A DNA stretch of 64,000 nt from a virus. A model generated the notes under the pieces. It ran no database searches. It saw only the letters and a list, made by a program, of their open reading frames with translations, and had not been told where the DNA came from. The position numbers were made by a program, and so were the translations under genes. Positions within the stretch are counted from its first letter, which is position 1, and every line of letters begins with the position of its first letter. This document shows, piece by piece, positions 2,915-56,994 of this stretch. Location of the stretch: IMG/VR virus record IMGVR_UViG_3300045988_073563, one strand, 5' to 3'.

Positions 2915-5900
2915 AGTTACACTTACATGTGACGGTAAACATGATTCTGCTAAATAGTATGATAGACTTTGTTTAGTCTATGATAATGATTATAAGTCTT
3001 TTATATCTATAAAGGAAGTACCTGTCAACATTAGTATTACTAATAAGGCATATTGGCAACCAGTAAGTGCAATATCTGCTGATGGTGAAGACATAATGGT
3101 AGATTATGACTTCAACCTTAAGTTTGCAGATAAAGAATATGTACCAAATCAATTTAGTGGTTTGGGTAGAAAGTTATTGCGCAAACGTATTGTTAATAAT
3201 ATCAATCTACTTCAACAGTCAGATATAAATAGGGCTGGTACTATTTATAGAATACAGTATGATTATAACCTACAAGGTCAAACAATACAGATACCAGAGA
3301 ACTGTGTATTGTTCTTTGATGGAGGTAGTATATCTAATGGTACTATTATACTGAATAATACTTTAGTATTACCGCAGTGTTTAGACATTGCTAAGAATAT
3401 TAAATGTAATATTAGCGGCAATTATCAGAATGGTCAGATATACTATGATTCTACTTAGGATAAACTCATTGCTGTAATAGGACAGAAGTTAGTAGACTTA
3501 TCAGAAAAAGGATCAGGTAGTGGTGGTTCAGTAAGTAATTATACTTGGATTAGATACGCCAATAATGCTAGTGGTCTTAATATGACTATGCAACCGCAAG
3601 CTGATACTACACACATAGGTATTGCTGAAAACCAAGCTGTAGAAACTCCTAGTTCAAATCCTGTAGATTATACTTGGATATTATTTAAAGGACCACAAGG
3701 AGAAAAAGGTATACAGGGAGAAAGAGGTATACAAGGACCTCCGGGAGAGAAAGGTGAGCCCGGTAAAGATGGTACAGACGGTAAACCGGGAGAATCAGTT
3801 AAACCAAATTGGAATACATGGGTATTCAAACAATCAGAACTACAACCAAGTAAACCAAACTTCTTTATACCTACTCCGGGAGCAGCAGGTATTGACGGTT
3901 GGTTTGATGGTCCGGGATCTACTGGTAGATGGTGGATGTCAATGGGTTTGGTAGATGGTAGTACAGACACAGTGGCTACTTGGACAGATCCAGTACAATG
4001 TACAGGTGAAGACGGTAAGACTAATAGCTACATGGACTTCAAGTATGCTAAGAGTGCTGCTGAGACTATTCCACCTCCATTGGATAGAACTGTGAGATTC
4101 CCAGAAGGATGGACAGATGAACCACCAACATTGATCAAAGGTGAATTTATGTGGATGATTAATGCGTTAATCGACGAAAATGGTGATCTTGTTGATAAAT
4201 GGGTAGGTCCTATTAGAATTACAGGTGAATCAGGTCCTCAAGGAGAACCGGGAGAAGGATTACCCGGAGTATCTTATAAGACTGTGTTTGCATATAAATC
4301 TAGTGAAGAAGAACCTGAGAAACCAGTAGGTGGATCATGGGATTCTGAAACTAATGAAGTAGTATATCCAGAAGGATGGCAAGGTAATGATCAGAAACTG
4401 ACTCCTCCAATATGGATGTCAGATAGAACATTTACTTCTAATCCTGATATAGTAGAGGATTGGTCTACTCCAATTAAGATATCTGGTGCAGATGGTAAAC
4501 CCGGTGCAGACGGAAAAGCAGATGAATTCATATATAAACGTACAGCAACTGCTGGCGACTTAGATAGACCTGATACTCCAACTAGTGAATAGATTGATGA
4601 TTACGTACCTACTGACTTAGGATGGACCGATACTCCTAGAGGAGTGACTACTACTTATCAAGGAGAATGGGTCAGTACCAGAAGTAAGAAAGATGGTAAA
4701 TGGGGTCCATTCAGTCAACCTGCATTATGGTCTAAATGGGGAGCTAATGGTCAGGATGGAGATGGTGTACAGTATATATTCTATAGAACTACTACCAATA
4801 ATGACCCAGATAATCCAACTCCAAACAATACTAATTCAGATGCATATCAGGAAACTGGTGACTTTGAAGGTATAGAATATATCCCGGGAGGTTGGTCAGA
4901 TGATCCAATCGGAGTAACAAAAGAATATCCATATGAATGGGTGTGTCAAAGAAAGTTCAGAGGAGGTAGATGGAGAGCATACACTGGACCATCGTTGTGG
5001 GCTAAGTATGGTAAAGACGGTCTTGATGGTTTAGGTAGTATTGTATTAGACTTAGATAATGAAATACAGTCAGTAGCTACCGATAGTTTGGGTAATGTAG
5101 TAGGTGGTTTACCACTTAATGCAACCCTAAGTATGTACTATGGAACTGTGCAATTAAATCTAAGCTCATTAACTGTACGTCCTCCAGAAGGAGTTATAGC
5201 TACTGCAGATAGACAATCTGGTATAATTACTGTTACATCTATTGCTAATACTACAGATACTACAATACGTATACCAATTGATGCTAGTACTGTGTATAAC
5301 AATGAATTGATGGAACGTACTACGTATCTTACTATTAATAAGATCAAACCCGGTGCTGATGGAGAAGATGCTATTCTATATTCATTAATGCCTTCTGTTG
5401 ATGCTATCCATGTAGATAAGAAAGGTGTATCTGATGTAGTATTTATCACTTGTGGTATTAAGAAAACACAGGGTGCTAACACAGTAGAGTTATCTCAATT
5501 ACCAAATGGTTATGCATTTAAATATGTAATTGATGAAGAGCTTGCTGAGAACTATACTATAGATCAAAACATATCTACTTCTTCAATTAAGAAGAAAATA
5601 ATATTTATGCTTACTAATGGTGGATAGTTAGTAGATAAAGAAACTATCTATAAGATTAGTGATGGTAAAGACGGAGTAGATGGTGTAGGAGGTTTGGTTA
5701 CAGACTTTGATAACGACATGATAGCTGTAGCGTGTGACTCTGAAGGTAATGTAGTTAGTGGATTACCTGTAACATCTACAGTAAGTATGTACTATGGAAC
5801 TACTAAACTTACATTATATGAGAACCCAACATTGGGTGAAGTAGCGGGAGTAACAGCTACGTCGTCTGTATTAGGTACTATTACTATAACTGCTATTGAT

Positions 5901-9221: not shown

Positions 9222-9749
9222 ATGTGGAAAGATATTAAAGATTACGAAGGTTTATATGAAATAAATTCATCTGGACATATTAGGAGAAAAGGCAGTGCAA
9301 AGCTGTTAAAACAAGCTAAAGGAAAAGATTATATGCAAGTTAGTTTATGTAAATGCAATCATAAAGTCACTAAAACAGTTCATAGACTAGTAGCAGAAAC
9401 TTTCTTAGAAAACCCTAATGAACTACGTTGTGTTAATCATAAAGATGAAAACAAGTTAAATAATAATGTAGAAAACCTTGAGTGGTGCAGCGCAAAATAC
9501 AATACTAGTTATGGTGACTGTATACAGAGAAGAGCAAACTCTCATAGAGGGAAGAAACATAGATATTCAGAACATGTTAAATGTAGAAAAATAACCCAAC
9601 AATTTGACAATAATATGAATTTAATAAAAGAATTTAACAGCTTAACAGAAGCATCCAAAAGTACAGGTATTGCTATACAAAATATTTCAGCTTCTTGTTT
9701 AGGTAAAACAAAAGAATCCGGTGGATTCATATGGAGGTATAAGACATGA
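9222..9749 (+). CDS. HNH homing endonuclease (NUMOD4-like N-terminus plus HNH)
   Basis: The N-terminus WKDIKDYEGLYEINSSGHIRRKG is the typical NUMOD4-type start. Also ...CVNHKDENKLNNNVENLEWCS, an HNH-like motif. No TAG codon in 175 codons. Its TGA stop overlaps the ATG of the endolysin. Confidence 0.75.
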   Translation: MWKDIKDYEGLYEINSSGHIRRKGSAKLLKQAKGKDYMQVSLCKCNHKVTKTVHRLVAETFLENPNELRCVNHKDENKLNNNVENLEWCSAKYNTSYGDCIQRRANSHRGKKHRYSEHVKCRKITQQFDNNMNLIKEFNSLTEASKSTGIAIQNISASCLGKTKESGGFIWRYKT

Positions 9750-10147
9750 AATATTTTTCTATCGCAGAATTAACAAAATCTACTACAGCTACAGCTAAGA
9801 AATTAGATAATACTCCTACAGAGTAGGCAGAGAAGAATCTAATTACTCTAGTAGAAAAGGTACTTGATCCACTTAGAGAATTGTATGGTAAACCTATTAT
9901 AGTTAATTCAGGTTATCGCAGTCCAGAAGTAAATAAAGCAGTTAAAGGAGCTAAGACAAGTCAACATGTATTAGGAGAAGCTGCTGATATAACAGCAGGT
10001 AGCAAAGAAGAGAATAAGAAGTTATTTGAGTTAATCAGAGATAACTTTGAGTTTGATCAACTTATTAATGAGAATGACTACTCATGGATACATGTATCAT
10101 ATAGAGAAGGAAGACTTAGAAAACAAATATTAAAGCTTGGTAAATAA
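9746..10147 (+). CDS. endolysin, peptidase M15 (zinc D-Ala-D-Ala carboxypeptidase-like) family
   Basis: MKYFSIAELTKS...SGYRSPEVNKAVKGAKTSQHVLGEAADI matches the M15 H-x(6)-D type motif. One in-frame TAG at 9824-9826. TAA stop. Confidence 0.75.
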
Positions 10148-10149: not shown

Positions 10150-13100
10150 ATGGTAAGATTTGTTAATTTTAGAGCAAGTGATATATAGCCCAATCCTGAT
10201 GAAGTAATGTACTGGGTTGACCTTAATACTGATCCACTTGGTGGTAGTATAAAGGTATGGAATGCAGAAGGATATTGGGAGACTATAAAAGTACTTCAAG
10301 GAACTCTACCTGAATTTGAAAACAGAATAAAGAAGTGGGTAGAACAACAATTAAAGAACTTTGATGAGCATCTGAATGAAGAGATACGTCAATTTGACGG
10401 TAGGATTGCTATCATAAGTTAGGATATAGAGACATTAAAACTAACTAAATAGGATAAACTTATTGCTGGTTCAGGCATAGATATTACTGATAATGTAGTA
10501 TCATGTGTACTGGATCTTACTCTGTATAAGATAGTATCAGAATTACCCACTGAAGACATTGATACTACAAAGATATACTTAGTAGTTGATAGTGAAGGTA
10601 CTCATGGTAATCTCTATAAAGAGTATATCTATGTAGATGGAGAGTGGGAACTATTGGGTGAATATAAAGCAGATATAGACTTATCCCCATATCTTACTAA
10701 GGTAGAAGCTGCTGATACTTATGCTACTAAACTAGAACTGCAACAAGAAGTAAATCGTGCAACACAAGCAGAGGTTACTGAGAAGAATAGAGCATTAGCT
10801 GCAGAGGAACAACTGTCTAAAGACATTGATGCAGAAAAGGATAGAGCTCTTATTGCAGAAAGAGATAACTTCAACCGTATTATAAATGAAATTGCACGTG
10901 CAGAAGCTGCAGAAAAAGCTAATGCTAAAGCAATAGAAGATGAGGCAAAGCGTGCTATAGAAATTGAAACAGCTCTTGCTTCAGGAATGGTAGAAGAACA
11001 GAACAGAGCAATTGAAGCGGAAGAACAGTTACAAGGTGAAATATGGGCTGTAGATGCTAAAATGTCTGAACAGGGTGGTTCTTTAACTGATGCTATAAAT
11101 TCTAATACACAAGCTATAGCTGATGAAACTGCTAGAGCTACTCAAGCTGAAGATAATAATAGGAATCTTATTAATGCAATGGATACAGCTTATAAGGCTG
11201 CTGATACTGCAACTAACACTAAATTAGACAATGAGATTACTAGAGCTAAAGCAGCTGAGAAAACAAATGCAGATGCTATAGTAGTAGAAGCGGATCGTAA
11301 TGATGCACAAGATACTTTAATCAGCAATCTGCAATCAAGCAAAGTTTCTACTGTTAACTTAGTATAGGATCCTGATAATGAGTTACATTATACATTGATG
11401 GTAGACTCTACTAATGCTGGTGAAATAAGCATACCTAAGGATAGATTCTTAAAGCAAGCTTATTACGATCCACAGAAGAAGAGCCTTATTTTTATATTTG
11501 TAACTGAGGATGGTGAACAAACTGTACCTGTAGATATTAGCGATCTAGTAGATACATATACTGCCGGTAATGGTTTAAGTCTAGCGAATAATAAGTTTAG
11601 CATTACTATTGATAGTACTTCTGATTCTTACTTAACTGTAGGAGCTAATGGCATCAAATTATCTGGTGTAGCAGCAGCTATTAACAAACTAGATACTGAT
11701 TACAAAGCAGCAGATACTGCAACTCTTAACTCAGCTAAAGCATATACAGATACTAAAGCATCTGATATAACCGATACAGTTACACAACTACAATCAGATA
11801 TAGAAGCTGAAGAAATCAGAGCTACAGATGTAGAGAATAGATTAGCAGGACAAATATTTGCATTAGACGCTGCAAAACAAGAAAGATTAGTTAGTGGTGA
11901 AACTATTAAGACTGTCAATGGCAGTTCATTACTAGGAGCTGGCAACATTGTTATTGAAGGTGGCAGTGGTGGAGGAATTGATGATGCTCCGTCTGATAGT
12001 AAAGAATACGTTAGAAAGAATGCAGCATGGTCAGCATTACCTACTAGATCTGTAACTCCAGTTGCTGATTCGTTAGTATAGAGAGACGGTTCAGGTAATC
12101 TGATAATTAATAAAGGCTCCATTAATTTCAACAATAACATGGAATGGTGGATGCAGGTTAATTCTGATGGTAACTTCATACTTAACAGTACTGGTAATGC
12201 AAATAAGTTCTTATATAAAGATTATGAAGTAGGAAATTTAAACAATTTATATGTACTTAGGGAAACTGTGATAGATGCTGGAACTCTAGACGAAAATACA
12301 TACTATCCTGTTACTATACGTATGGATAGTAAGTACAACAATAGAATAGAAGTGCATACCACATTGGGAGTATCTAGAAAGCCAAGTTGGTCAACACATG
12401 AACAAGGATTTTCGGTTCATTTTGTAGAAGAAGTTTATCCTTTAGCTTGGGGAATAAACAGTACTACACATAGAAGAATATTATCTTTTAATTATAATTG
12501 GACGAAAGATAAAGCAGTATATCCTATAGGTAGGGTAACATAGATGGAAAACGGTGGGTCAGAGGTAATATATGTTAGAGGTGGAGGAAGATATTATTTT
12601 TATACTACTAAAAATGCTTTACCAGTATTAAGGACCTCTGATTATACAGATAGTAGTCAAACTGTATCTCCTAAAGCAGCTAGTGATATGACAGATGCTG
12701 ACTATGCTACTTTTAAAAGAACTATGGTTGAAACTGCTGATACTTCTTATGAACCTACTGCAAATAGTATAGTAAAAAGGAATGCGGACGGTTATATAAA
12801 AGCTAGTTATATAAACACAACTGCAAGTAGGTAGAATGGATATGCTGATACAATGAGTGATGTATTCTTCATGTCCAATGAAGATGGTTACATTCGTCGT
12901 TGTTCCAAAGCAAAGTTCAAAGAACAAATATCAGGTACAGGTTTAGATGCAGATACATTAGATGGTCAATAGGATGATGCTTATTTGAGATACAGAAGTA
13001 CTACAACAACACATGATGATAACACACTGTGGGATAAGATAGGTATTAAAGAATATTCTTCAGCTAATCCAGACCAACTAGATACTCCGTTTAATTATGG

Positions 13101-15006
13101 AGCAGCTATATCATTACCTGCGGGTTCAAGAAGATTTGACATATGGTATTCTGACAGCTCATCGACTAATTCTACTTAGAGGGGAGTATTCTATAGAACT
13201 GGTTGGAATGTAACTAAAAATCCATGGGTTAGATTTTTAGATGCCAATGATATGAGTGCTACAAATGTAGCAAGCAAGATTCCAGTTAGAGACGCTAACA
13301 AACAGATACTAACTAGTGGTTATAAGAAAGAAGGATCTAGTGATTCATATGTGTTGCTTGGTGCTGGTGGTCACGTAATGTTAGCAAAAGGAGCTACTGG
13401 AAATACCATTGTGCAAAGAGACAATGATGGAATAGTATATGGTAAGTACTTCTATACAGAACAAGAAGACGAACCTTCTAGTGCTACTATATCTTCAGTA
13501 TATATAAAAACAACAGATAAAATTATAAGAAGAGTATCATTCGCTAACTTTAAATCAGCATTAAACATTCCTTCTGCATACACATTACCAACTGCATCTA
13601 GTACTACTTTAGGAGGTATCAAGGTAGGAGCAGGATTATCTATTAGTAATGGAGTGTTATCTGCTAATGGAGGTGGCACAGCTGATTCAGTAGCGTGGGC
13701 AAATGTAACAGGTAAGCCAACATGGATAGGAACTGCTAAACCAACTTATAGATTAGATGAAATAGCATCATCAACTAACCAAACTGTAGATGCTAGTACT
13801 ACACCTGTATCTAGAAAGAAAATAGTCTATGTAGGTAAATCAGGTAATGGTTGGATAAGTGCAGTTGCATTAGGTATACGAAATGTAAATGGATCATTTG
13901 GTCCAGCTGTATTATCATTGGGTACTAAAGATACACCGTCAGATACAGCAGCTATTGATGATGGATGGGTAGATTATCAATTCTAGACTAGTGGTAGAAT
14001 TGCATCTAAGGCAGGTACATTTGCTGTTACTTCTGATATTCCTACTTCATTAAAGAACCCTAATGCTATTAAGTTTACAGGAGCAGTTACTGGTACTTAT
14101 GATGGTTCATCTGCTGTTACTTTGAATATCCCAACTATTGCCGGACCAAAAGGTGATACTGGTGAGAAGGGAGAAAAAGGTGATTAGGGTCCGTAGGGTT
14201 TGAAAGGTGACACTGGGGATCAAGGACCTAGAGGATATGCTGGTTCAGATGGAGCTAATGGTAAATCGTTAGAGTTTGTATGGAGTGGTTATACTCTTGG
14301 TGTAAGACAAGAAGGTACTACATCATATACTTATTCAACTAGTTTACGTGGAGCAACTGGAGCGAAGGGTGATAAAGGAGATAAGGGTGATACAGGTCCA
14401 GCTGGTACTACAACGTGGTCTGGTATTACTGGAAAACCATCATGGATTGGTAGTAGCAAACCAACGTATACATGGTCGGAAATCACAAGTAAGCCATCAT
14501 GGATCGGTTCAAGTAAACCTTCCTATTCATATTCAGAAATATCTGGTACTCCATCTCTTGCTGATGTAGCCACATCTGGATTATATAATGATCTAAGTAA
14601 TAAACCAGTTATTGATACTGCTCTATCTTCTACTAGTACAAATGCAGTTCAGAACAAAGTAATATATGAATAGTTAGTAAAGAAGGCTGAGATAGTAGGA
14701 TATTAGGCAGGTTAGAATGGTTACATAAAGTTTGACAATGGTTTATTAATGCAATGGGGGTATAAAACAGCAAGTTCTACTGGTACTAATACTATTTATA
14801 CACCTATAGCTTTTTATAATGCTACTTATTGTCCTATTATTACTTATCGTGAACCAGGGTAGGGCATGAACATTGTTATAGGCTTAGTTACACTTGTACA
14901 AAATAGTTATTTTACAATAAGAAGTAGATACACAGTGGGAGATTCGAATGGTACTGGCGCGGGAATCAATGATTTTTATTGGGTAGCCGTTGGTAGATGG
15001 AAATAA
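10150..15006 (+). CDS. second giant tail fibre protein (1618 aa): coiled-coil repeats, collagen-like segments
   Basis: Listed ORFs 10207, 10654, 11395, 12139, 12544, 12985, 13252 and 14200 all lie in frame 1. Sixteen in-frame TAGs and no other stop until TAA 15004-15006. Contains RAxxAE-type fibre repeats, G-X-Y repeats and KPSWIGSSKP(T/S)Y repeats. Confidence 0.8.
14143..14268 (+). repeat. collagen-like Gly-X-Y repeat containing two TAG codons
   Basis: GPKGDTGEKGEKGD-TAG-GP-TAG-GLKGDTGDQGPRGYAGSDGANGKS. The G-X-Y register is preserved across TAG 14185-14187 and TAG 14194-14196. Confidence 0.85.
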
Positions 15007-15019
15007 AAAATTAACTGTT

Positions 15020-15550
15020 ATGAAATATTGGAAATAGGGATTCTATGATGAATTTCAAGAAGGTTCGGTTGAAATAACCGAAGAATATTGGCAGAAACTA
15101 TTAGTCGGGTAGTCATCAGGAAAAGAAATAAAAGAAAACGAAGTTGGATATCCCATATTGGTCGATTATCAGTATACTATTGATGAATTAAAAGAAATGA
15201 AAATAGCTGACATTAATGCTTATGATAAATCAGATGCGGTAAATTCATTTTATCTTTCAGGAAAAAAAATGTGGTTAGATAAAGAAGACCGAGTAGGGCT
15301 TGTTAACTCAATTAATATTGAGAAACATACTGGTAAACTAGATACAGTTTTATGGTTTGATACAATAAAATATACTATACCTATAACAGATGCTATATCT
15401 ATGCTAAATTCATTAGAGTTATATGCACTTAATTGCTATAATACTACCCAACAACACATTTCGGCAATCTATAAATTACAAACAAAAGAGGAAATAGAGT
15501 CTTATAACTATAAGACAGGTTATCCAGATAAGCTATAGTTTACATTATAA
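15020..15550 (+). CDS. hypothetical protein, possible fibre assembly/chaperone (176 aa)
   Basis: ATG at 15020 is in frame with listed ORF 15158..15538. Three in-frame TAGs, TAA at 15548-15550. Position is between fibre genes. Confidence 0.4.
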
Positions 15551-16112: not shown

Positions 16113-17381
16113 ATGAAATTACAGAATAATGACATAATAGCAGCTTATCTAGGTGCTTAGACTATTTCTGATATTAATTTGGGAGATAACAATGTCCTCT
16201 CTAATTACTATGGAGTTAGCTTTCCATTAGAACCTCAGAATACTCTTATGACTAGAATAGGTTATATGCCTTGGCATAAGTCATTACCTATTCAATCTAA
16301 AATGAAAACATGTACTATTACTTCTGATGGTACTGTTAAATATATCAATGCATCTGATAGAACTAAGTATGAAGATGGAACTGACAGAGATATGACGCTT
16401 AATACTATGGTAGAAATACCTGAATTCTGGTATAAGTGTATGAAGAATGAAACAGACGTTTTCCTTAACTTGTATGTTAATGATCCTAAACTAGCAGACG
16501 TGGAACATGTAACTAAATTCTATATTTCAGCATATGAGGCTACTACAGTAGATGATAAGTTGATGTCAGTTAATAATGGTTCTACCCCTACAGTATCTAT
16601 CCCCAGAACTACTATGCAATCTAGAGCTAGAGCAAATGGTAGTGAGAAATGGAATATGTATACTTATAAGGCACATAGAATCCTTACTATCCTTTACTTA
16701 GTAGAATACGCATGTACTAATAGTCAAGCAACTTACAATGCTACATTAACTTCAGAAGGATATAGACAAGGCGGACTTGGCGCAGGTGTAACTGGTGCAG
16801 GTCAACCAGTTAAGAATGGTTCTAATATATACTCAATTGTTCCATGTGGTACTACAGATTCACTAGGAAATGCTACAGGTGTAGTTTCATTTACTTGGAA
16901 TAATACTAATGCAGAAGGTGCTACTATATCTACATTCAATTATAATGTACCTAGTTATAGAGGCGTTGAGAATCCATTTGGACACTTATGGAAGAATGTA
17001 ATAGATGCATTGGTACACTTTAACTCTACTGATAATTGTAATGATGTAATGTTGAATAATAATCTCGCTACATTTGGTTCAACCACAATAGGTGATTATA
17101 CGTTACAGGGACAGACATCAATTAGAGAAGGATATAAGAAGCAGTTGATATATAACTCTGCCTTTGATTTATTCCCATCTAAAGACGAAGCATTTGGAGG
17201 AAATACTACAACGTATTGGTGCGACTATAATTATACTAATAATAGTACGTCAGACAGAACTTTCCTTTTGGGTGGTCACTCGGCTAGCGGCGGTGGTGCT
17301 GGGTTGCTCTATGTGGGTTCTTACGGTGGGCTTGGTGCTTCCTCTGCTTCTGTCGGTACTCGGTTAATCTATATACCGTAA
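16113..17381 (+). CDS. DGR target protein (tail-fibre/receptor-binding type, 422 aa) with C-terminal variable region
   Basis: ATG at 16113 is in frame with listed ORF 16179..17381. One TAG at 16158-16160, TAA stop. The last ~40 codons (LLGGHSASGGGAGLLYVGSYGGLGASSASVGTRLIYIP) are the VR. Confidence 0.85.
17265..17365 (+). repeat. DGR variable repeat (VR)
   Basis: 17271..17361 aligns without gaps to 17427..17517 (offset 156). Of 91 positions, 64 are identical and 27 mismatch, and every mismatch has A in the TR copy. Confidence 0.9.
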
Positions 17382-17390
17382 AAATATAGA
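17368..17390 (+). other. 7-bp inverted repeat just 3' of the VR, spanning the target stop codon
   Basis: TCTATAT (17368-17374) pairs with ATATAGA (17384-17390), with a 9-nt loop. The position matches that of the hairpin/cruciform element known downstream of the VR in other DGRs. Confidence 0.35.
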
Positions 17391-17420
17391 ATTTTGTAAA
17401 ATAATTAGGTTGTTCTCTTG

Positions 17421-17521
17421 CATTTAGGTAGTAACACGACTAACAGCAGTAATGCTAGGTTACTCAATGTGAATTCTAACAATGAGCTTAGTAATTCCAA
17501 TGCTAATGTCAGTACACTGAT
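17421..17521 (+). repeat. DGR template repeat (TR), non-coding
   Basis: Adenine-rich copy of the VR. In the VR reading frame it carries 10 AAY codons. Lies 55 nt after the VR and 120 nt before the RT start. The listed ORF 17418..17645 is this element, not a gene. Confidence 0.9.
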
Positions 17522-17641
17522 CCCCAAAACAGAAAAAATATTTAAAAAGCACTGTCAGAGAAGACCTTACCTCTTGGTAAAAAACGACATTTTAAAACAC
17601 TGTATTAGTAGCGTAAGCGAAAGTTCGGTATGGGATTTCAG

Positions 17642-18664
17642 ATGAAAAGATATAATAATTTATTTGAACAGATTGTTAGCTTAGACAATCTACGTCTAGC
17701 TGAAAAGAAAGCTAGAAAAAACAAGACTCACAGACCAGAAGTTATTGAGTTCGATAAGAATAAAGAACAACTTCTGTTAGAGTTATAGAAAATGTTAATC
17801 GAAGGTACATATGTAACATCTCCGTATTATGTCTATAAGATATATGAACCTAAAGAAAGAGAAATCTTTAAGTTACCTTATTATCCAGATAGAATAGTAC
17901 ATCATGCTATAATGAATATTATGGAACCTATATGGGTATCAACCTTTGTAAAAGGAACATATAGTTGTATTAAGAAACGTGGTATCCATAAAGCAATGAA
18001 AGATGTTAAAGAATCTTTGAAAGACATATAGGGAACTCAATATTGTCTAAAGTTAGATATTAGAAAGTTCTATCCTTCAATAGACAATGATATACTTAAA
18101 CAAGTAATAAGAAGGAAGATAAAAGATACTAAGCTATTGAACTTGTTAGATGGTATAATAGATTCTGCGCAAGGAGTTCCTATCGGTAATTACTTATCAC
18201 AATTCTTTGCTAATCTGTATTTAACTTATCTAGATCATTATATTAAAGAAGTTCATAAGATAAAACACTATTTCAGATATGCAGATGATATTGTAATATT
18301 ACACAGTGATAAGAAGTATCTTAGATATCTGTATGAAGATATTAAAAGTTATCTAGAGAATCAACTTAATCTAAGGTTCAAAGATAATTGGCAGATATTT
18401 AAAGTAGATTCTAGAGGAATAGATTTTGTAGGTTACAGATTGTTTCATACACATATACTTCTTAGAAAGAGAATCAAACAAAGCTTCTGCAGAAAGATAA
18501 CAAAACTAAATAAAAAAGATATTGATAAGGATGATTATAAACAAAAAATATGTAGTTATATAGGTTGGATTAAACATTGTAATGGAAGGAATTTATTCAG
18601 TAAAATGTTGAAATATAAAGAGCTATTAGAATACGTTAACATCCATAGACCAAGTAAAACATAA
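17642..18664 (+). CDS. DGR reverse transcriptase (340 aa)
   Basis: ATG at 17642. Listed ORFs 17792.. and 18137.. are in the same frame, joined by TAG 17786-17788 and TAG 18029-18031. TAA stop. Motifs: [14 protein letters not shown] (DGR-type [I/L]GxxxSQ) and YADDIVIL. Confidence 0.9.
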
Positions 18665-32994: not shown

Positions 32995-35900
32995 ATGGAA
33001 GATAACAGATTAAGATTAGGAGCTCGTAAATTAACTAGTTCTACATTTAATGTAAGAGACAGTGTAACTACTAATGATGGAGCGTCAGATAGAAAGTAGA
33101 AAGCTGCAGAATATAACCAGTATGTTCAAGAAAAGGGGTATACCGATCTTTACAATAAAGATGCAGTTAAATATCAGTATCAGCAGCAAGAAGAAACTAA
33201 AGATAAGGATACTTCTTGGTGGAATAAGGGCGCAAGATTTATGAGTATTGCTGCCAATCCTGTGTTAGGTTCATTGGCTAATAATATACAAGATTTGTAT
33301 AGAACCCCGTTAATACAATCTACTATAGAAAAAGCTGTAGAAACCAATATAAGTTCTCTGAAAGGTAATATAATAAAAAACGAAGTAAAGAATCTAAATG
33401 ATTTTGCCTTTGTTAAAGATTATGAAACCAGAAGACAACAAGCTTATGAATTAGCTAAGTAGGGAGATGAGGAAGGAGCTCAAAAAATATGGGACACACT
33501 ATCATAGGATTTCGCTAAATTTGATTAGATAACTAAATCAAATAAAGATCTTATATCTATGTACTACAAAGTTCCTAAAGTTGGAGGAGCTACGTATAGT
33601 GAAAAAAAATATCGCGGTATCAACTTATTAGGTGAATTAACAGATAGATCCTTAGCTCTTACCAATAGTAATATTAGATTGGCTGAAAAAGCGGAAGCTC
33701 CAAAAGACGTAACTTCAGTTAATGTAAGCAATATTCCTTTATGGAATAGATTTACTATAGCTTTAGACAATATTTTATCTTTTAATAATAGTGCAGAAGA
33801 AATAAGCGAATATGTTAATAAAGGATATGGTGATGCTGTGAATTTTGTTAGAAATGAAGAAGTATCTAATAATCCAGATAGAAGTGGCATAATAGCTAAA
33901 CTTAATCAGTTAGAAGAAGATAATAATACCAGTCATAATGTAAAAACTCAAAAACTTAGAGATAAACAAGAAACCTTACGTAATGGTAGTTGGTTCTTTG
34001 ATCCTGATGCTATTGACCCAGTATTTAGAGAAAAAGTAAATAATAACGAGTTTCAATGGACTGAACCAAGATCTTACTTATATGCTCTTCCACAAATAGG
34101 ATCATCAATGGGAGAGTTTGCTACTACTATAGAAACTGCTACTCTTGGTAGATTAGCTGGATTAACAGCTAAAGCATTAGGTAAAAGAGGTATTCCATAT
34201 GCTTCAGCTGCAGTTACTTTGACTGAAGCTGCTATCAATGCTGGGAATCAGTACTATCAAAGAACATAGGAAACAAATGCTGAAATCTTTGACTCATATC
34301 TATCTAACTTGGTTGGTTAGATGGAAAAAGGAGATATTAATCCAGAAACCATATTAACCAAAGGAGCTTAGGGGTTAGAAGCTAGGGGAATAAATGTACA
34401 AGAATTAACTGTTCCACAGATATTAGAGGAAATGTTAGTGTACAATATCAATACAGATGACCCTAGTTTTGAGAAAGCCAAGTATGATGCTTACTTAGGA
34501 TTGCGTGATGTAGAACAATCTAATATGGCGTTAGGTCTATGGGATTTAATGGATATGGGCTTGTATTCTTATGGAGGCAAACTGGCAATAAAGTCTGCAA
34601 AAGAAGGTTTTAAAGACGTAGCTAAAGGAATTTCTAAAGCAACTGGAGTAACAAAAGCCTTAAACTTAGGAGGTAAGTTTATAGATAATAGAATAAATAA
34701 AGCTCTTTATACCATAGCTGGAAAAGATGTTTTCAAAGCTAATAAGTATAAAGACTTATTTAATACTATGGGCAAAATGAGCGGTAAACTAGGTATAACA
34801 GCTTTTTCAGAAGGAACTGAAGAAGGTCAGCAGTATCTTATACAAAAAGATTATCAGTTATAGAATTCATATAATAGCGGAGAATTAACTTTAATAGATG
34901 CTTTTTTAAAGAATTTTAAATACGGTGCTGAAGCCAACTTAGCTCTTATGGGGTTACATCCAGACGATGCTTTAAATAATGATAAAGAACTTGAGCAGAA
35001 CATGAAAATTGGAGCTTTAATAGGCTTAGTAATGGGAGGTCCTGCTACAGCTATTTCTGACGGATACCAAATGATACGTAATGTGAAGTCAAATAACATG
35101 CTTCGCAATATGGCTGCATATGATATATCTAACAGAGAAAACGATGTTAAGGTAGATAGATGGTTTGATGCAGTAAAGAAAGGGTATACAGATGATATAT
35201 TGAATAATCTAGTAGATATAAAAGATAGATTTACTCCGGAAGGTCTTACACAAGAAGATATAGATGAAGATATAGTTAAAGCAAAAACTATAGAATCTAT
35301 TTATTATAATCCATCCGTTAATACTAATCTAGAAGATTTAAATATAAATAGAGGATCTGATAAACATAAAATTTTCGTTAAAAATGCGATTAAAGCATAT
35401 GATAATGAGAGAATATACAATGAAAAAACAAAAGAGGCAGACGCTAATTTGTAGAATTTACTAAAGATTAATGATGAAGAAAATGCAACTGCATTTAATT
35501 CTAATGTAGATGAATACTGGAATGGGTTAACAGAAGAGCAAAAGTTATCTTGGAACAATAGTAAAGACGAACTGGTAGCAGCTATAAAGAAGGTTAGAAA
35601 CCTGACTGCCACTTAGACTGTATATAGTAGGTTGAGAAGGTAGTTAAAGGATATGGACAAATTTGTTAGTGAAGCTAAAAAGAATGGTTTAGATGTAACT
35701 AATGAGAATATAGCAGCTATAGCTTCTTACATAAATAAAATTTCTAAATCTTTAGAAAAAGAGGTAAAGAATATTCCTAATGCCAAAGCTATGGTAGATA
35801 TATTTGGTTTATCTACCAATAAAGAAATAGATCAAGCTATTGCAGATAAGGCTATACTTACTGGTTTGTTACATAAAGCTGTTAATAGAAGATCTGCATA

Positions 35901-38900
35901 TTAGAATGGTATTGTGGTAAAAGATAATCAGAACAGGCAGATAGATTTTAATATCAGAAATTGGAATCAACTTACTCCAGAAGAGCAACAAACTATAATA
36001 GATAAGTAGACTAGTGAAGCAGAGCAGAATGGGAAAGATGCTCCATCGTTAGCTAGTATTATAGCTAGATATAATTAGAACGTACAACTGCAGATAAAAA
36101 TTCAGGGTGAAACTGTAAGAGCTGCTAGGGATTATGCTAATGAGATAATTAAAGCAGATATGGACAGATATGAACAAAATGATAGGTCATATACTGAACA
36201 AGATGTAGCTTTAAATGCAGAAGTAGAGAATGCCCTTAACTAGGATACTGAACAAGATACATCAGAAGTTGATTTTACTCCTACTGGTAATGCTGACAGT
36301 TCTTCTCCTTTACAAGGCACAGATATTAGTGTAAAGACAAAAGAGAAGAGAAAAGACAAAGACATCTATACTCAAACAGATGAAGATAAATTAACTAAAG
36401 CTAAAGAAGAAGTAGATACAGAAGAATTAGATGTAACTGATTTAGTTTCAACTGAGGATGCTCCAGACATTAGTGATGAACAGGAATCTATTAGGGAAAG
36501 AGCAATCAGGGAAGTAGAAAATCCATCTGAAAAAAAACCCAAAGACGATACTCAAGATAAAATTACAGAAGAAAATATAATGGATGCCAAGAACTGGGCA
36601 GATCCTGAAGATGATTTAGGTCTAACCAGAGATGATAATCCTGATATTGAAAGAGATCTTACTTAGATTGAAGATCTTACTCCAAAGGAATTAGACGCCA
36701 AAATACAAGAAGCAGAATCTACAGATAGTCGTAGTGACAATCCGTAGGCTGGAGATTTCTTTGTTTCTAATGATGGTAAAATGTTTCTTAACGGGGTGGA
36801 GATTACAGATGAACAATTAGCCAAAGAAAATTCGTACGATGAGTATGCAAATGATCCAGAACACACATTATCTGAAAAAGCTAATAAACTAGCAAAAGAA
36901 GGTGAAAAAGTTCCCGGGTTATCTACATCTGAAACTATACGAAATAATTGGTTAGTTGGTAGAACTTTATTCTATAGACCTGACGCTACACAACCTATGT
37001 AGCTTCCATTTAAAGTAAAAGGAGCTAAAAAAATACACAGTGGCAAAGAACTTGGAGAGGCTATGGGTAAACCGGGATTCTTAGATGGTGCTAAATTGTA
37101 TTTAGTGCCCGGTCCTACGTTCGATAAATCAGAAACATAGTTTGATCCTAATGATCCTAGAACCTATGAGAATGCAGCTGTATATGTTATAATTGACAAA
37201 GACGGAGATATATACGCTGCAGCATATAGAAGTCAGAAAAAGGCTACTTTAGATTATCAACGTAGATTGGGGGCTGAAAACATTGGTCCCGGTACTAAAG
37301 CTAATGAAGATCTTGAAGTACTAAGGGAACAGAAACAAAAAGTAGTTAGAGCCTATCTGCAGCAATGTCCAAAAGATAAGAACGGAAAATATGTATTACC
37401 AGATGAAGCCCTAACCCATGTAGTGCCTACTCAAGTAAATGTATCTAATGGGGTGTTTAATAATCAGAAAGACGGTAACAAGCCTAAATTGAGGAAACTG
37501 TCAGAATGTAAGACATTTGAGATTCCTCATAATCCATTAGACATATTCACAGAATGTACATTTGGATATGGAACCGGTGGAATGAGTGATGCAAACCCAT
37601 ACTTTATTAAACATATGGGTAATGATGAAGCACTATATACTAGTGGTGGTTTCTCTGGTAAAATAGTAATAGTACCTAAACCATCTGCCACTCCTAGAGG
37701 TAGATATTCTTTGCCTATATATTTGAGTGAAAAGTTCTTTAGAGATGATAAAGTAACTAAACCATCGCAGATAGTATTAAAGAGTCATGATGAAAATGGA
37801 AACCCAGCATCAGATAGACACTATACTAATTTTATGGAATATGTTTTAGATCTTATTACAGACGGAGACCCATATGGAGTACTGCCATTGATAGTAAATC
37901 AAGGAGCTAAAACTAGATTATCTTCAAAGAAACAAGAAGCTGCTCAATATCTTGCAAAGAAACAATTAGGATTTGATCCAGATACTAACAGATTCTATAT
38001 AGCATTACCAAATAGTCAAAGAGGTGGTTTGTATTTTAGAACAGAAATACCATTAGAACAAATAAAGACAGAGCCTAATGTCAGAAAGATGGTCATATGG
38101 TTTATGATGCAAAACTTCCACTGGAACACTGATAAAAATGTATTAACCAGTTCGCTTCCAGAACAGCTTAGAGATTTGGCTATACGTTTGAATCCAAAAA
38201 ATGATAAGATAGTACTATTCCCCGGAGAACTGGAATTTACGTTACAACAACTAGGTATTTCTAGAGTGGATGGTAAACTTGTAAAAGATAAAGTTGCCCC
38301 TCCTGCTATGGCTTGGACTATTGACAGTGGCAAGTTACTTACAGATATGGGTGATTATGCATTTAAAGATGGGTTTATATACATAGAAGATATAACTACA
38401 GATCAAACTGAAACTGCTGTAAGTGCGTCTACGTATCCTATAAGTAAAAAATCCTCTAAACAAGAGGAAACAAAAGAGATCAAAGAAAAAGGTACTAAGT
38501 TTTTTGGAAAGAAACAACTTAGAGACGTATTGTAGAAGTATAGACAACAAGTAGATAGCACTTAGGTTGAAGATTGGGGTATAGAGCAAATAGCAGAATT
38601 TGAAGAATATCTTGGTAAACATATCAGTACAAACAGAATGGAGGAGAACGGTAATACCATTACCAAATCTACATTTGAAAGAGGAAGTATCGTACATGTT
38701 ACTAACAAGTAGTCAGATTATATAACCCAATTCTTTGATAATTCAGATAATCCTATAGGAGAACCGATGGTAAATCTATCTATGAACTCTAAGTTGGCAA
38801 TGGACTTATTAAAGAAAGATAGTAATGGATTTTTAAGTTTATCTGATGAATCTATCCGTAAGATATTCACATATAATGCTACTGAAGAAACAGGAACTAG

Positions 38901-41900
38901 AGAAACAGAAGTAAAGCCTGTTGCTAAGGTTAATAGAAGAGCTAAAGCTCAAGAATTAGCTAGAACTATAAAACCATCAGATGCAAATGCTCCTAAAGTA
39001 GGAAGATTTATGACTTCTGATGAGATAAAAGAATATGCAGATGGCTTGAATCAAAAAGTAGCTACTGACAGTTTCGTATATCTGTATGATTAGGATGGTA
39101 AACCTCAAATGTTTATCAGAAGTATGATGGAAAAGCTTTTCCACGAGGTTGGAAGAGAAGTGAACGGATTATATTCTATAGAAAGTAACGAAATAGGGCG
39201 TGAAGAACAAGATCTTAAAGCTGCTAAGCAATGGTTGATGGATAAACTTGGTCTTGCTGTAGATCAGGTTAGAATATTCAATGGAGTAATGAGATCTGCT
39301 TCCAATGGTCCTAGAGTGTATGGTGTTACAAGAATGTCTGTTGGTAATGTAGCTAATATATTATTAGGTAAAGGAGCAGGTTTGGGTATATAGTATCATG
39401 AGGCTTGGCATTATATAAATATGCTTGTACATTCTGCTGCTGAAAGATAGATAATATATGAAGATTTCATTAAACATAATCCAGAGTATAAAAATAGAAC
39501 AGTAAATGAGATAGAAGAAGCTATGGCTGAGGATTTCCGTAATTGGGCTATAGTAGAGAATGCTAAATGGTTTCAATTAGGTTATCAAACAATAAAAGCT
39601 TTTAGAGCTATAAAAGGATTCGTAAAATCATTATTTGGTATATCTAATAATTTGACTACTAATATATATAGAAATATCAATAAAGGTAAGTACAAAGAAT
39701 ATTAGATGAATCAATCTTCTGTTGATGAATTTAATAAAGCTTATACAAAAAAAGGAGTGTATTTCTCAATACCGGGAGTAGATCAAGATAGGTTAAAAGA
39801 TATGCCCTCTATTATTAATCCGGATGTATTCTATAATGTAGTAGATTCTCTTACCAGTACTTTATTATCTATATTCAACATACGTAAGGCACAAGATATA
39901 GATAATTTAAGCTAGAATTTAGATTATTTACCTTCTATAATTGAAAGTAATATGATGGCAGGTATAACTCCAGAAGAGAATGATCAGCTTATAGAAGAAG
40001 TATTAGATAATTGGGACATATTCAAACAGTCTTTGGTAGAACAATTGAGTTCTCTTAACATAAAAGCTGTAGAAGTTGAAGAAAAATCTGATTATGATAC
40101 TGGAGAAAAGAGACCTGATGAGAAATATGATAGGGTATCTTATGAATTTTCTAAGAAACTTAACATGTCCTTCAATGCTAAACTATTCTTCTATTCTATA
40201 CCTAAAATGGAATATGATAAATCTAGAAAACTAGTACCAGTAACTGATCCTATTTTTGGTCTTAATATGACAGAATCTTTTGATGTTACTTGGAATAAGA
40301 TCATGGAGAATTTGTGGGACATTGAAAGATGGGAGGATTTAGAAAGCAGATGTGCTAGATTAGGCAAAGCTGACCCGTTCTTCATATCATTACTTAATTA
40401 TATAAGTGGTGCTAATAAACCTGACGAGAATACATGTACTCAAATTCTCACTACCATTAAGAGTGCAAAAAATGAAATGACTACTGTACAGTTCTAGGAT
40501 GCATTTTAGAAAGTAAAAACTAGTGCTGGACTAGAAGAATTTGTAAAAGATATTAAGACTACAGTTAGAGCTAAGTCTGGAGAATGGAGAGTAATTGATT
40601 CAGCAGTATTCAGATATCAGAATAAGTATCCTAGGCAATGGGGTAGATTATTTTATGTATCTGGAATGATAGATAAAAGCGATGTAAACAATTTTGTAAT
40701 AGACTCTGAAAAGTTAAACAACTTAGAGATAAGATTAGAAATAATAGCTGACGAATTGTCTGAAATAGCTCAACCTTTCATAAATAAAAAAATGAAAGGG
40801 TCTAATAAATTATCAGAAGATCAGATAAGACAAACTACAGTAAAAGCAAAATAGGATTTTGTAGAGATACTTAATAGTATTGGTATTGATGTAGATACTA
40901 AAACTATAGATTATCTGTTATATGGTACTGAAAGTTTAGATAAAAAACTACCTACAATAGAATCATTTGATAAATTATATACCATATTGAGATCTACTAA
41001 GAAAGGAAGTGCTAGAAACCAAATAATAGGTAATCTAAATAAGTTACAAGAAGGAGAATCTAAAGATTTGAAATTAGACAATCCTTTTCCAGCTGCAGAA
41101 GGTAGTTTCATACAAAAATTAGCTATAGCACACGGTAAATCTCATCCTAATCCTACTGAATTTAGTGTAACTGGACCTAATAACACTACTATTTATCCTA
41201 TTACTCAAAATAACTATATGTCAGACAGAGTTAGATGGTTTAATCAAGATGCTTCTGAAGTTGATAAAACACTACTAGCCACTTATAATAAACACTCTTT
41301 ATTATTAGGGGCACTGAAATAGGGTTCTAAATTAAGCCTCAGTACTCTTATTGCTGTGCGTAATGCTGATAATAGAGACAGTAGAGACTATTTCTAGATA
41401 TCACCTACTGAGGACTACATTGCTAAACTTACATTAGCTCATCAGAATAGAATCGTTATGCCAACTATGGCAGATAAAAAAACATGGTATTCTATAACTG
41501 GAGTTAATCTATTTCATGATTTATTAAGCAGATCTAGAATGACAGAAATACAAACAGAGAATGGTATTCAACAAATGTTTGTAGAAGATGATATGTATAG
41601 GTATTCTGATAATACTCTACAAGCCATATCGGATTATCTGCTAGATGAATTCAATGCTGTATACGATTACTATATACACAAATCTGAAGTAGAAGAAAAC
41701 CCTAATTTACGTATTGATAATTATCATGGTAAAATAAAGAATGGGGTTATGGACAACTCTGGTAATGGTGGTTATTTTAGGTATTTCTCTTCACTTAAGA
41801 TGAGACAACAAGATGGTACATATAAATATGTTCCTTTAAATCAGATGTTGTGGGCTTGGTCTAAATTTGATTATGATAATGGTGGTAATTAGATGGAGAC

Positions 41901-44900
41901 AAGATTAAAACAACTCCGAAATACTTTATTTGGAGACAAAGAAGCTCTATTTGATGCGATAAATGCAACATTATAGGATAAAGTCCAAGAGGAGATAACA
42001 TTCCTAGTAGATAAAGGAATAGTAAGAAGAGATGGTACAGAACTTGAAAATGTATTACTACCTACAAATATAGTGAAAGAGTATACAGATAGATCTAAAA
42101 ATCTAACCTCTGGTGATACATCTAGGAATAACAAGTCTGCTGCCGTTTATTCTATTATCGCAAATCATGTAGTAAATGAAATAGTATCTATAAATGAAAT
42201 TGAAAAAGCATTCGTAGGAGATCCTGCTTACTATAAATGGAAGAGAGATAAAAACAAACCATGGATAATAGTAGAAAGATCTGTAGATAAAATTAAACGT
42301 CTTGGTTCTGTATTGTCTACTGGGGATAATCTTAGAACTTTTTGGGGAGATGGAGATGTAAGAAATAATTCTAAATTTACTGTATTACACATGAGTGATA
42401 ATATGGTCAAATCTGTAAAATTCGATGAATACAAAAAGATGTTTACATCTGCTGAAGTAATGAAATATTTACAAAGGAAGAACCCTAACATTAGTCAGAG
42501 GCAACTTATTAATATGGTAAGTAAGGATAGTATTAATAAGACATTAAAAACTATTGACGCTAAATCAAGAAAATCAATTGAAGATTCTGTGGAAAGACAA
42601 ATCGCAGCATATGGGGTTAACAACAGAGGAGAAGGTAATATAAATTAGGCGGATGCTGCAGTTTATATTAGACCAGCCTTATATAAGAGAATTATCCAAG
42701 CTGTAGGAGAATGGTCACCAGAAGTTGAAACGGCTTTTGAGCTTTTAGAAAGTGATAATCAAGAGTGGTTGTCTGATCCAAAACAGTATGCTCAAGCTTT
42801 GGAAACGCTTATTAAACCATTGAAGATGGTGTACTTCGGAAATCACAACTTGACTAAGTTAGGTTTGAATGTTCCAGTATTTGATAAGATGGCAATATTC
42901 CCATTATTTAAAGTAATGGCAAAAGCTGATAACTATCATTTATATCAAAGAATGAACAATGATGAGCTGGGAACCATAGATATGCTTACGTTTGAATCAG
43001 CAGTTAAAGTGGGAGGTAGATAGAAATTTGCTCCATATAAAGATGCAGATAATTCTAGATTTAATATAGAAGATTTAAATAGACCTTCTACATCTACAGT
43101 AGTTGAAGAAACTAATTTCGAAGGTTTAGATACTGATAATTCTAAGTTACCTACATATATACAAGATCTTAGAAATTTACGTCTGTAGATGAACACAGAT
43201 CCTCATGAAAGCGTAGATAGATCTCTAGGTACGCAGTTTGCCAAAGTAGCCTTAAGTAATTTAATAAAAGATAGACCATATGGTTTAAATAAAGATGTAG
43301 AATACACCGGTAGATAGATTATAGATAATATATTTGGAGCTATAAATAGATTATCTGACATTGGAGCTCAAAAAATATATGATGAATTCTTAGAAGATGG
43401 TAAACCTTCTGAATAGAAACTATCTAAGTTCTTAATATCTCAAGGAAAATCTAGTGGTTTATCAAGAGATGCTTTATCTTCATTTGAAATAGACAAAACT
43501 ACTAGACAAATCAAGGTACCTTTGTCAGCCCAAAGTAATAGAAGATTTGTAGAAAGTAGAATAATATCAAGAGTAGGAAAAACTGCCATTGATATTAATA
43601 CTCCCGGTGGATCCGCTATCCAACATGCATTCTTTGGATTTAAAGATACTACTGGAGTATAGAAGCAATATCAAGTAGGTAGAGCTTTTAATGATGGTAA
43701 GCCTTTAAATCCTCTTAATAGCGATGGTAGTATGGATTGCATGTTGAGTACTAATTTCTTTAAACATATAGTTCCTAAGAAATATGCTTCTGATTATACT
43801 GCTATGAGAGACTGGTTGTTAGATAAGAAGATAATTGGGCAAGATGCTAAACCTTTTGCATTAGGTTATCGTATTCCAACTCAGGGTCTTTCTTCTACAT
43901 GTTCATTAAGAGTTACAGATGTGTTACCAGAATCTATGGGGGATGTTATAGTAGTTCCAGATGATTTTACTGCTATGACAGGATCTGACTTTGATATTGA
44001 TAAGCTATATATAGCTACAGGTTATTATGATAAAGATGGAAATTATTTGCAATGTAATTGGGACGATTTATCTAGTAATTCTGAAAAATAGCTTGTTAAT
44101 GGTCTGATAGACATGTATAGAGTTGCCATATCAGATGATAGTAACATTGATCAAAGTAGAGCACCTCTGGATAATCTTACAACTAAAGTAAAAGAAGAAA
44201 TAGTTCCTTTAGTTATGGGTAAATCTAAAGAGGAATGCAAGCCTATGTATGAACTCCTTCCTTCTTATTAGTTATTTAAGAAATTTGAATATACTGGAGG
44301 TAAAGATGGTATTGCTCCGTTTGCTCTTGCATCAACCAATCATGCTCTTACTCAAGCTCTAAACTTAAAAATGGATCTTGGATCAGTAGGAGATACATAT
44401 AATTTAGGGAATATAAATGATGTATTGTCACAAGATGGTGAGAGAATATTGGATTGGTTATCTGCAATGATTAACGCCCATGTAGACGTTGCAAAAGATC
44501 CATACATTATTAATCTTAATGTTAATTCTGTTACATATAGTATGACAGAGTTCTTGTTAAGGACTGGAAAAGGTGAAGTAACATTTTATTTCTTATCCCA
44601 ACCAATACTTAAGGATTTTGCCAATACGTTGATAAAGCTTAATGGGCAATATGGAGTAGATCCTAGTGATGTTAGTTATTCTGAGCTCATGGATGATACT
44701 TTATTTGAGTTGAAAAAATAGTATAAAGAAGAAGCGGAAGAATACATAAGTACTCTACCTAAAGAAGAACAGAAGAAGTTGCTAAATATATTGGATAATT
44801 GGGACGATAAAGATAAAGGAGTTGACAAATCATTAGCAGTAGATCCTTTAAAACTTGAAAAATCTTTGAACAGCAATATAAAAGGAGAGAGAAATCTTGA

Positions 44901-51487: not shown

Positions 51488-51958
51488 TTATTCTAGAATA
51501 GGATCTTCTAATACATCACCTACAGGAATAATCTCTTTAATTTCGTGAAAATTATTAGTAAATATAATATCACCTATATTACTATCAATTCCACTGAATA
51601 GATTCCAAATAGTCTTATAATCAGAATTAGTAAGTCCAGCAGGACCGTTACTAATAATATTATCATATCTATGTTTAATTTCATTAGGAAGTGTAAACAC
51701 AGCTATTTCATACCAAACATCGTTTATACGAATTTGTCTTAGACTATGAAAGAATTTGTTCTTTTTTAACTCGAACTCTAGATTTAATAAATCTGCAACT
51801 GTATTTTCTTTATACATTATGAATACATGATTATCAAAATATGGTTCATCAGGATATTCTGTATATACATTTATAAAGTTCTTGTTAATTAGTTTTTTGT
51901 TATCTACAATTAACTGCAGTAGACATGCAGATGCTTCATTCAAGTTCTTCAGTTCCAT
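51488..51958 (-). CDS. hypothetical protein (156 aa)
   Basis: Intact ORF with a TAA stop. Last gene of the - strand operon. Confidence 0.6.
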   Translation of the reverse strand: MELKNLNEASACLLQLIVDNKKLINKNFINVYTEYPDEPYFDNHVFIMYKENTVADLLNLEFELKKNKFFHSLRQIRINDVWYEIAVFTLPNEIKHRYDNIISNGPAGLTNSDYKTIWNLFSGIDSNIGDIIFTNNFHEIKEIIPVGDVLEDPILE

Positions 51959-53821: not shown

Positions 53822-53872
53822 ACTGTAGAAATTTAGTAAGTTTATAAATAAGTATTGAATAAAATAGTATCA

Positions 53873-54712: not shown

Positions 54713-54724
54713 AACTGTAATTTT

Positions 54725-56787: not shown

Positions 56788-56802
56788 ACGATATATTGTT
56801 AG

Positions 56803-56924: not shown

Positions 56925-56933
56925 TTATATTAA

Positions 56934-56994
56934 ACGTAGGTTGTGTACTATTCGTAATCACTCATTTTTCATAGTGCGGTACACTAACCTACGT
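56934..56994 (-). ncRNA. long imperfect hairpin (15 bp plus 1 bulge, 30-nt loop) between the SSB gene and tRNA-like A
   Basis: On the + strand ACGTAGGTTGTGTAC (56934-56948) pairs with GTACAC-T-AACCTACGT (56979-56994). The loop contains an inner CACT/AGTG stem. Confidence 0.5.

Follow-up and report, generated by a model that had tools for sequence, protein, structure and literature searches.

The 64,000-nucleotide (nt) stretch of DNA taken from the IMG/VR virus record IMGVR_UViG_3300045988_073563, referred to here as the window, very probably carries a complete diversity-generating retroelement (DGR) that possesses no Avd gene and is arranged in the order target gene with variable repeat (VR), template repeat (TR), spacer RNA and reverse transcriptase (RT). 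With the same high confidence, the element belongs to the tail-fibre module of a gut phage that is crAss-like (Suoliviridae, close to Buchavirus) and in whose late genes TAG stands for glutamine. The cassette is real and complete, and it is apparently active.

Repeat pair and cassette layout

The VR and TR (Table 1) align without gaps over 91 nt at an offset of 156 nt, and recomputation of the alignment gives 64 identities and 27 mismatches. The TR base is A at all 27 mismatches (17 A>G, 6 A>T and 4 A>C), and only 5 of the 32 TR adenines are kept unaltered in the VR. If 27 mismatches were scattered at random over the 91 positions, the probability that all of them would fall on the 32 adenines is 2e-18 (hypergeometric); ordinary mutation or recombination cannot be the source of such adenine-only differences. 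Read in the VR frame, the TR contains 10 AAY codons (Y being C or T), and 30 of its 32 adenines stand at codon position 1 or 2.

The VR makes up codons 387-417 of the 422-codon target open reading frame (ORF). The target stops at 17381 and the RT starts at 17642; the non-coding TR lies in the 260 nt that separate them. No ORF is found between VR and TR, and a 75-amino-acid ORF at 17418-17645 was rejected as a gene, being merely the TR and spacer read in frame. No further copies of the TR or VR were found on either strand of the window by a search that matched non-adenine TR positions only. The initial annotation of this DNA, made from its letters, had described the alignment, the ten AAY codons and the location of the VR at the C-terminus of the target; every figure of the alignment was reproduced, and the recount of codons and the placing of the VR agree with it.

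Variation among related loci

A total of 80 IMG/VR loci with RT homologues (65-99% amino acid identity) were fetched, and 82 loci were compared in all. The same target-VR/TR/RT layout with adenine-only mismatches is present in 75 of the 82, and column statistics across 76 loci show that VR variability is restricted to TR-adenine columns. Close relatives have almost the same TR but widely different VRs, which differ only at TR-adenine columns. In nine genomes that are 95-98% identical over the cassette, the mean pairwise difference reaches 20.7% in the VR core, whereas the remainder of the target gene differs by 1.7%, the RT by 2.6% and the TR by 0.67%. Polymorphism in these nine genomes affects 23 of the 32 adenine columns and 4 of the 59 non-adenine columns, and 8 distinct VRs are accompanied by 3 distinct TRs. 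Non-adenine substitutions in the TR (loci L003 and L051) and A>T changes in the TR (L004 and L005) recur as the same base in the VR, which is direct evidence of transfer from TR to VR. At the population level the VR is rewritten from a conserved TR. The cassette is probably active, and the proposal of active diversification made initially is borne out by the nine close genomes.

Three loci, L015 (~3777-3870), L031 (~2360-2460) and L034 (~3779-3871), contain a TR that is itself stripped of most adenines, these being replaced by G, C or T. The TR in these loci is no copy of the VR, and both the spacer and the end resembling IMH* (the TR counterpart of the initiation of mutagenic homing sequence, IMH) are intact; L031 and L034 show odd T>G changes besides the adenine loss. 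These adenine-depleted TRs could be products of mutagenic self-homing into the TR, which, if true, would disable the DGR, or they could be artefacts of assembly or sequencing.

Table 1. Features of the DGR cassette in the window
Feature	Position	Strand	Remarks
DGR target gene	16113..17381	+	422 amino acids, tail-fibre module; in-frame TAG at 16158-16160 read as Gln
VR	17271..17361	+	Hypervariable core 17277-17350; mismatches to TR at adenines only
IMH-like VR 3' end (TGTCGGTACTCGGTT)	17351..17365	+	Fixed differences from TR at 17355, 17360, 17362, 17364
Inverted repeat, hairpin/cruciform candidate	17368..17390	+	TCTATAT / loop ACCGTAAAA / ATATAGA
TR	17427..17517	+	Non-coding, 32 adenines, 10 AAY codons; IMH*-like stretch on to ~17521
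Putative structured RNA in TR-RT spacer	17563..17645	+	Covariation; sub-threshold match to Rfam RT-17
DGR RT	17642..18664	+	340 amino acids; in-frame TAG at 17786-17788 and 18029-18031 read as Gln

Reverse transcriptase and genetic code

The RT matches Pfam RVT_1 (E = 7e-17). Its closest solved structure is bRT, the RT of phage BPP-1 (PDB 8ub7_A; E = 3.4e-51, 178 bits, residues 2-322 to 3-319), and group II and retron-type RT structures rank behind bRT at about 1e-17. The region of the SQ motif is aligned to bRT IGSLTSQLFANVY, with IGNYLSQ set to IGSLTSQ, and the protein carries both the (I/L)GxxxSQ motif and YADD. These are the two motifs on which a DGR-type RT had been recognised at first sight, and the full-length bRT homology is in line with that call. 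NCBIfam possesses no DGR-specific model and is usable only to exclude membership of the group II, retron and Drt families, for which the RT scores 118, 67 and 64 bits against curated cut-offs of 300, 235 and 200 bits, respectively. Judged by its sequence, the RT is best assigned to the DGR RTs.

With the standard code, the target loses its first 22 codons, beginning only at 16179, and the RT is split into ORFs of 52, 79 and 175 amino acids. Both ORFs, as delimited in the initial annotation, are continuous only when their three TAG codons (Table 1) are read as sense. Long ORFs occupy 98% of the window if TAG counts as sense, up from 77%, and far less is gained with TGA or TAA. The resulting plus-strand block (1-51428) is tightly packed and includes ORFs of 4587, 1817, 1618, 1555 and 1388 amino acids; in-frame TAGs number 130 in nine large ORFs of this late, structural block, and the opposed minus-strand block (51488-64000) has almost none. 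All 81 RT homologues that were aligned contain in-frame TAGs, from 1 to 9 each. Columns of this alignment hold only TAG or CAA/CAG (57/24, 39/42, 22/59 and 28/53) and include the Gln of the SQ motif, which is encoded as TAG in 39 of the 81 homologues; the bRT residue aligned with the first RT TAG is Gln. The alternation of TAG with CAA/CAG, the gain in coverage and the bRT Gln indicate that TAG encodes glutamine in the late genes of this phage.

It is very unlikely that the locus is a decayed, inactive DGR, with an RT broken by two stops and a VR/TR pattern that is a fossil of past activity. The three short RT ORFs obtained with translation table 11 and the lack of a suppressor tRNA in the 64-kb window would fit decay. 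However, coverage of 98% and ORFs of up to 4587 amino acids emerge once TAG is sense, the TAGs of all 81 RT homologues occupy CAA/CAG positions, the essential SQ Gln included, and different VRs are found in genomes that are 95-98% identical. More improbable still is an RT that has nothing to do with the repeat, whether retron, fragment of a group II intron or defence RT, beside a VR produced by mutation with diversifying selection or by recombination of tail-fibre alleles: although RefSeq relatives label the gene 'Intron reverse transcriptase' and the best NCBIfam match by E-value is a group II RT model, the group II, retron and Drt scores are far under their cut-offs, the 178-bit match to bRT is full-length, neither mutation nor recombination can confine differences to TR-adenine columns, and Rfam reports no intron RNA domains and no retron msr/msd at the spacer, which matches RT-17 and RT-18 instead.

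Several observations weigh against a complete and active DGR and are considered together here. No Avd-like Pfam match was found in the cassette or in the 16 ORFs between 8.3 and 23.8 kb, and the RT of BPP-1 requires Avd. Avd is not a universal requirement: about one in four DGRs lacks it, as do the crAss-like cassettes in the literature (PMC7290462). An upstream ORF at 14948-15550 (126-200 amino acids) was considered as Avd and rejected; its weak match is to DUF4376, a tail-fibre-associated domain. No suppressor tRNA(CUA) is known from the window, in which ARAGORN finds no tRNA; it may lie outside the window, the genome being ~100 kb. No all-G/C IMH block occurs at the VR end, and the hairpin candidate that follows the VR is AT-rich and energetically weak (single-sequence fold z = -0.7). 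Finally, the evidence for activity comes from comparison between genomes and not from a read pile-up of the source sample.

Repeat ends

Homology between VR and TR extends weakly to ~17365/17521 downstream and to ~17262/17418 upstream, with non-adenine mismatches beyond the repeat at 17362 (G vs T) and 17264 (C vs G). Free variability of the VR, as seen in 76 loci, spans 17277-17350. On the 3' side of this core, the VR and TR show fixed differences at 17355 (G/A, 75 of the 76 loci), 17360 (T/A, 75 of 76), 17362 (G/T, 76 of 76) and 17364 (T/A, 48 of 76), and the adenine at 17358 is retained in 75 of 76 loci, whereas adenines of the core vary freely. The fixed differences and the retained adenine are the behaviour expected of IMH versus IMH*. 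The IMH-like stretch of the VR (TGTCGGTACTCGGTT) and the IMH*-like stretch of the TR (TGTCAGTACACTGAT) are short, with a G+C content of ~53%.

An inverted repeat with arms of 7-8 bp, TCTATAT (17368-74) and ATATAGA (17384-90), is located directly 3' of the IMH-like stretch and reaches across the target stop codon. It is kept in 50 of 73 anchorable loci, with loops of 9-21 nt, and shows one compensatory change, from ATCTATAT/ATATAGAT to ACCTATAT/ATATAGGT. The hairpin is absent from the L054 subclade, where the target ORF runs on. The VR had initially been described as ending abruptly and atypically. This holds for the absence of an all-G/C block, but the fixed IMH/IMH*-like differences, followed by the conserved hairpin, suggest that the abruptness is only apparent.

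In this sister subclade, L054-L082 (RT 65-68% identical), the VR/TR offset is 238 and the VR stops short of the C-terminal end, since the target ORF extends ~30 codons or more beyond it.

Spacer RNA

The spacer between TR and RT is 124 nt long. Its single-sequence fold is not significant (z = +0.6), and the structure is visible only from comparative data. The consensus derived from an alignment of 24 distinct spacers has 16 pairs, of which 4 carry compensatory changes; it leaves 99% of cells paired, a share that drops to 26-41% when the partners are slid. Its helices are formed by TTACC (17567-71) with GGTAA (17576-80) and by a stem of 17600-06 with 17622-28, within which 17611-12 and 17617-18 form inner pairs.

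The Rfam family RT-17 (RF03020) matches the structured part of the spacer (Table 1) over model positions 1-95 with 34.6 bits (E = 3.6e-5), under its gathering score of 40.4, and RT-18 gives a weaker match that is sub-threshold as well. The homologous spacer of locus L018 (3919-4007) reaches 40.8 bits with RT-17, over the gathering score. The window spacer is therefore best described as a borderline relative of RT-17. It resembles RT-17 and RT-18 in its location upstream of an RT gene, in the hairpin GACCUUnCC-loop-GGnAAAA and in the UAGUAG...CGAAA internal-loop consensus, and it differs from RT-17 in falling short of the gathering score. RT-10 corresponds to the TR-RT spacer of BPP-1, and other RT motifs have been speculated to serve other DGRs (Weinberg et al. 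2017, PMC5737381). Rfam gives RT-17 no function; the location between a TR and a DGR RT would, by context only, provide RT-17-like RNAs with a DGR context.

Target protein and its fold

The target matches PHROG 5302 'tail protein' (E = 1e-74), and no Pfam domain was found in it. Searches for PDB relatives by sequence (single sequence, profile A1 and profile A3) gave nothing real; the matches of profile A3 were rejected as low-complexity noise from N-terminal extensions. A distant homologue, P0139, has a borderline match to the Pfam family FGE-sulfatase (FGE, formylglycine-generating enzyme) with 23.0 against 23.3 bits. Prediction with AlphaFold2 was unusable from 34 close homologues (predicted local distance difference test, pLDDT, of 34) and succeeded only with 88 diverse sequences of 31-69% identity, which gave a model with pLDDT 95.1 and a predicted template modelling score (pTM) of 0.93. 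The best PDB match of this model by Foldseek is TaqVP (5VF4; E = 7.5e-9, probability 1.0, template modelling (TM) score ~0.47-0.50), followed by Mtd of BPP-1 (5e-3), FGE (1e-2) and TvpA (0.26). Among viral models, crAss-like 'tail fiber' proteins match best (TM 0.86-0.90), together with many 'tail collar fiber' proteins. The target is predicted from this model to possess a C-type-lectin/FGE fold, as had been anticipated before any model was available.

The target module, about 390 amino acids in length, was found in 2051 clusters by an HMMER scan of 1.84 billion representatives. It is usually C-terminal in proteins of 400-1600 amino acids and commonly fused to long fibre N-termini. The target itself is 69-70% identical to the next-nearest group of homologues, which are 413-amino-acid proteins, and possesses a 10-residue N-terminal insertion that holds the TAG. 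Its 90%-identity protein cluster includes 2469 distinct sequences, differing mainly in the last ~35 residues.

Mechanism and sequence context of mutagenesis

By analogy with BPP-1, the RT would copy a transcript spanning the TR and the structured spacer and would misincorporate opposite template adenines. The cDNA would then replace the VR, with the IMH-like sequence and the hairpin, both at the VR 3' end, determining directionality. The change would affect the ligand-binding face of a receptor-binding protein with a C-type-lectin/FGE fold, where about 20 adenine-templated codons would be rewritten and the 10 AAY codons would be free to vary. We infer that the spacer RNA serves in priming, that the hairpin acts as described and that the target binds receptors; the timing of homing is inferred as well.

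The outcome of mutagenesis appears to depend on sequence context. In 68 distinct TR/VR pairs, TR adenines before G or C almost always appear as G in the VR. Four-fold degenerate third positions follow suit (GCA>GCG in 22 of 22, TCA>TCG in 27 of 31 and ACA>ACG in 6 of 6 cases), and GCG, TCG and ACG are the rarest codons in the phage, at ~4% each, which is opposite to the A>G outcome. The adenines of AAY codons sample all four bases, and non-coding mutagenised TRs obey the same 3'-base rule. A 2026 study of BPP-1 bRT reported an error spectrum controlled by the 3' neighbour and dominated by misincorporation of C (A>G) (PMC12875486). The natural 3'-base bias, from which selection is not separated, is consistent with that study, the detail differing at NAC contexts.

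These elements can be combined into a joint reading, tentative and rather doubtful as a whole, that departs from the textbook model in its gating and shaping of hypermutation and comprises an amber-gated RT, an error spectrum shaped by the 3' base and an RT-17-class spacer acting as an Avd-independent priming scaffold. As to gating, the RT may be made only under amber suppression, with homing confined to late infection. As to shaping, the TR may hold 'cryptic' adenines where the protein needs Gly or G, with the AAY codons exploring all bases.

Comparison with known systems

DGRs have been published in several crAss-like phages: in the alpha group, in crAssphage LMMB and genus I Intestiviridae (PMC7290462), in epsilon crAssE-Sib (PMC11054128) and in zeta crAss-like phages (PMC12386605). 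The occurrence of cassettes in Suoliviridae is mentioned in one sentence of the epsilon paper (PMC11054128), and no detailed published description of a Suoliviridae cassette was found besides it. The published cassettes and that of the window share the order target-VR(IMH)-TR(IMH*)-RT, with IMH- and IMH*-like stretches in the window, without Avd, at the end of a tail-fibre block. The window genome differs from them in representing a distinct lineage, with an RT ~75% identical in amino acids to that of Buchavirus. A TaqVP-like fold has been reported for the target of crAssE-Sib (PMC11054128); the target described here is likewise a predicted C-type-lectin-fold protein with TaqVP as best match. 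The epsilon RTs do not have the canonical GxxxSQ, which the window RT does. Amber codons inside the RT gene are shared with the zeta phages (PMC12386605). The Buchavirus RefSeq genomes cr60_1 and cr52_1, in which an RT and an 'Mtd-like tail protein' are annotated, have a cassette that is 74-76% identical in nucleotides.

The BPP-1 DGR (mtd-avd-TR-brt), the prototype of these elements, resembles the window cassette in the full-length homology of the RT, in the adenine-specific mutagenesis of AAY codons and in a VR at the C-terminus of a protein with C-type-lectin fold and receptor-binding function, both predicted for the window target. Fixed differences of the IMH/IMH* kind at the 3' ends of the repeats are seen in both, as is an inverted repeat that closely follows the VR. 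The window cassette differs from BPP-1 by the lack of an Avd gene, by a short IMH-like stretch of ~53% G+C in place of a 14-bp G/C block, by an AT-only hairpin with a loop of 9-21 nt, by a spacer RNA of the RT-17/RT-18 class rather than RT-10, and by genes that are translated with TAG as Gln. TaqVP from Thermus aquaticus (PDB 5VF4), itself a DGR variable protein, is similar to the target in its FGE-type C-type-lectin fold and in the C-terminal location of its VR, but the sequence identity between them is only 12-13%.

Phage identity and neighbouring genes

The nearest phages in GenBank are Buchavirus hominis and B. copri (Crassvirales, Suoliviridae), with 74-76% nucleotide identity across the cassette. 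Their cassette genes carry the annotations 'Reverse transcriptase' and 'tail protein; similar to sulfatase, major tropism determinant'. Downstream of the cassette, Pfam CrAss_Ring_2 (E = 4e-79) identifies a crAss tail ring protein. These similarities, together with the giant ORFs of 4587 and 1555 amino acids and the late and early blocks on opposing strands, assign the window to a Buchavirus-like, crAss-like phage of the Suoliviridae.

A 1618-amino-acid fibre with collagen-like repeats, a DUF4376-like protein and a Phage_tail_C protein are encoded upstream of the target. The fibre ORF (10150-15006), directly upstream of the DGR target module, contains 16 in-frame TAGs, coiled-coil regions, collagen-like GxY repeats and repeated 'KPSWIGSSKPTY' motifs. 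Farther upstream, an ORF at 9222-9749 resembles HNH/NUMOD4 homing endonucleases (NUMOD4, E = 2e-9; HNH_3, E = 5e-6) and is followed by an M15 peptidase ORF (9746-10147, E = 3e-22). The HNH/NUMOD4 ORF has zero in-frame TAG despite its location in the recoded block and is possibly a recently acquired mobile gene. The late block is closed by two giant ORFs, 32995-46758 (4587 amino acids, 46 TAGs) and 46761-51428 (1555 amino acids, 30 TAGs). At the late-block position of these two ORFs, crAss-like phages encode proteins related to virion RNA polymerase.

Significance

The locus is a good example rather than a discovery, since such cassettes have already been described in crAss-like phages. Modestly new are the RT-17-like spacer, the anatomy of the IMH and hairpin, the natural context bias, and the TAG at the catalytic Gln in relatives. 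It also carries a practical warning: in phages that recode TAG, the RT will be fragmented or overlooked by standard-code annotation and by tools like myDGR.

Tail-fibre DGRs are a leading explanation for how crAss-like phages keep up with the variable surfaces of Bacteroidales. The locus is well populated: related contigs number in the hundreds and VR variants in the thousands. Questions that become approachable with it include the priming of cDNA in Avd-less DGRs with RT-17-type RNA, the sequence-context bias of adenine mutagenesis, and the interplay between stop-codon recoding and the expression of a retroelement.

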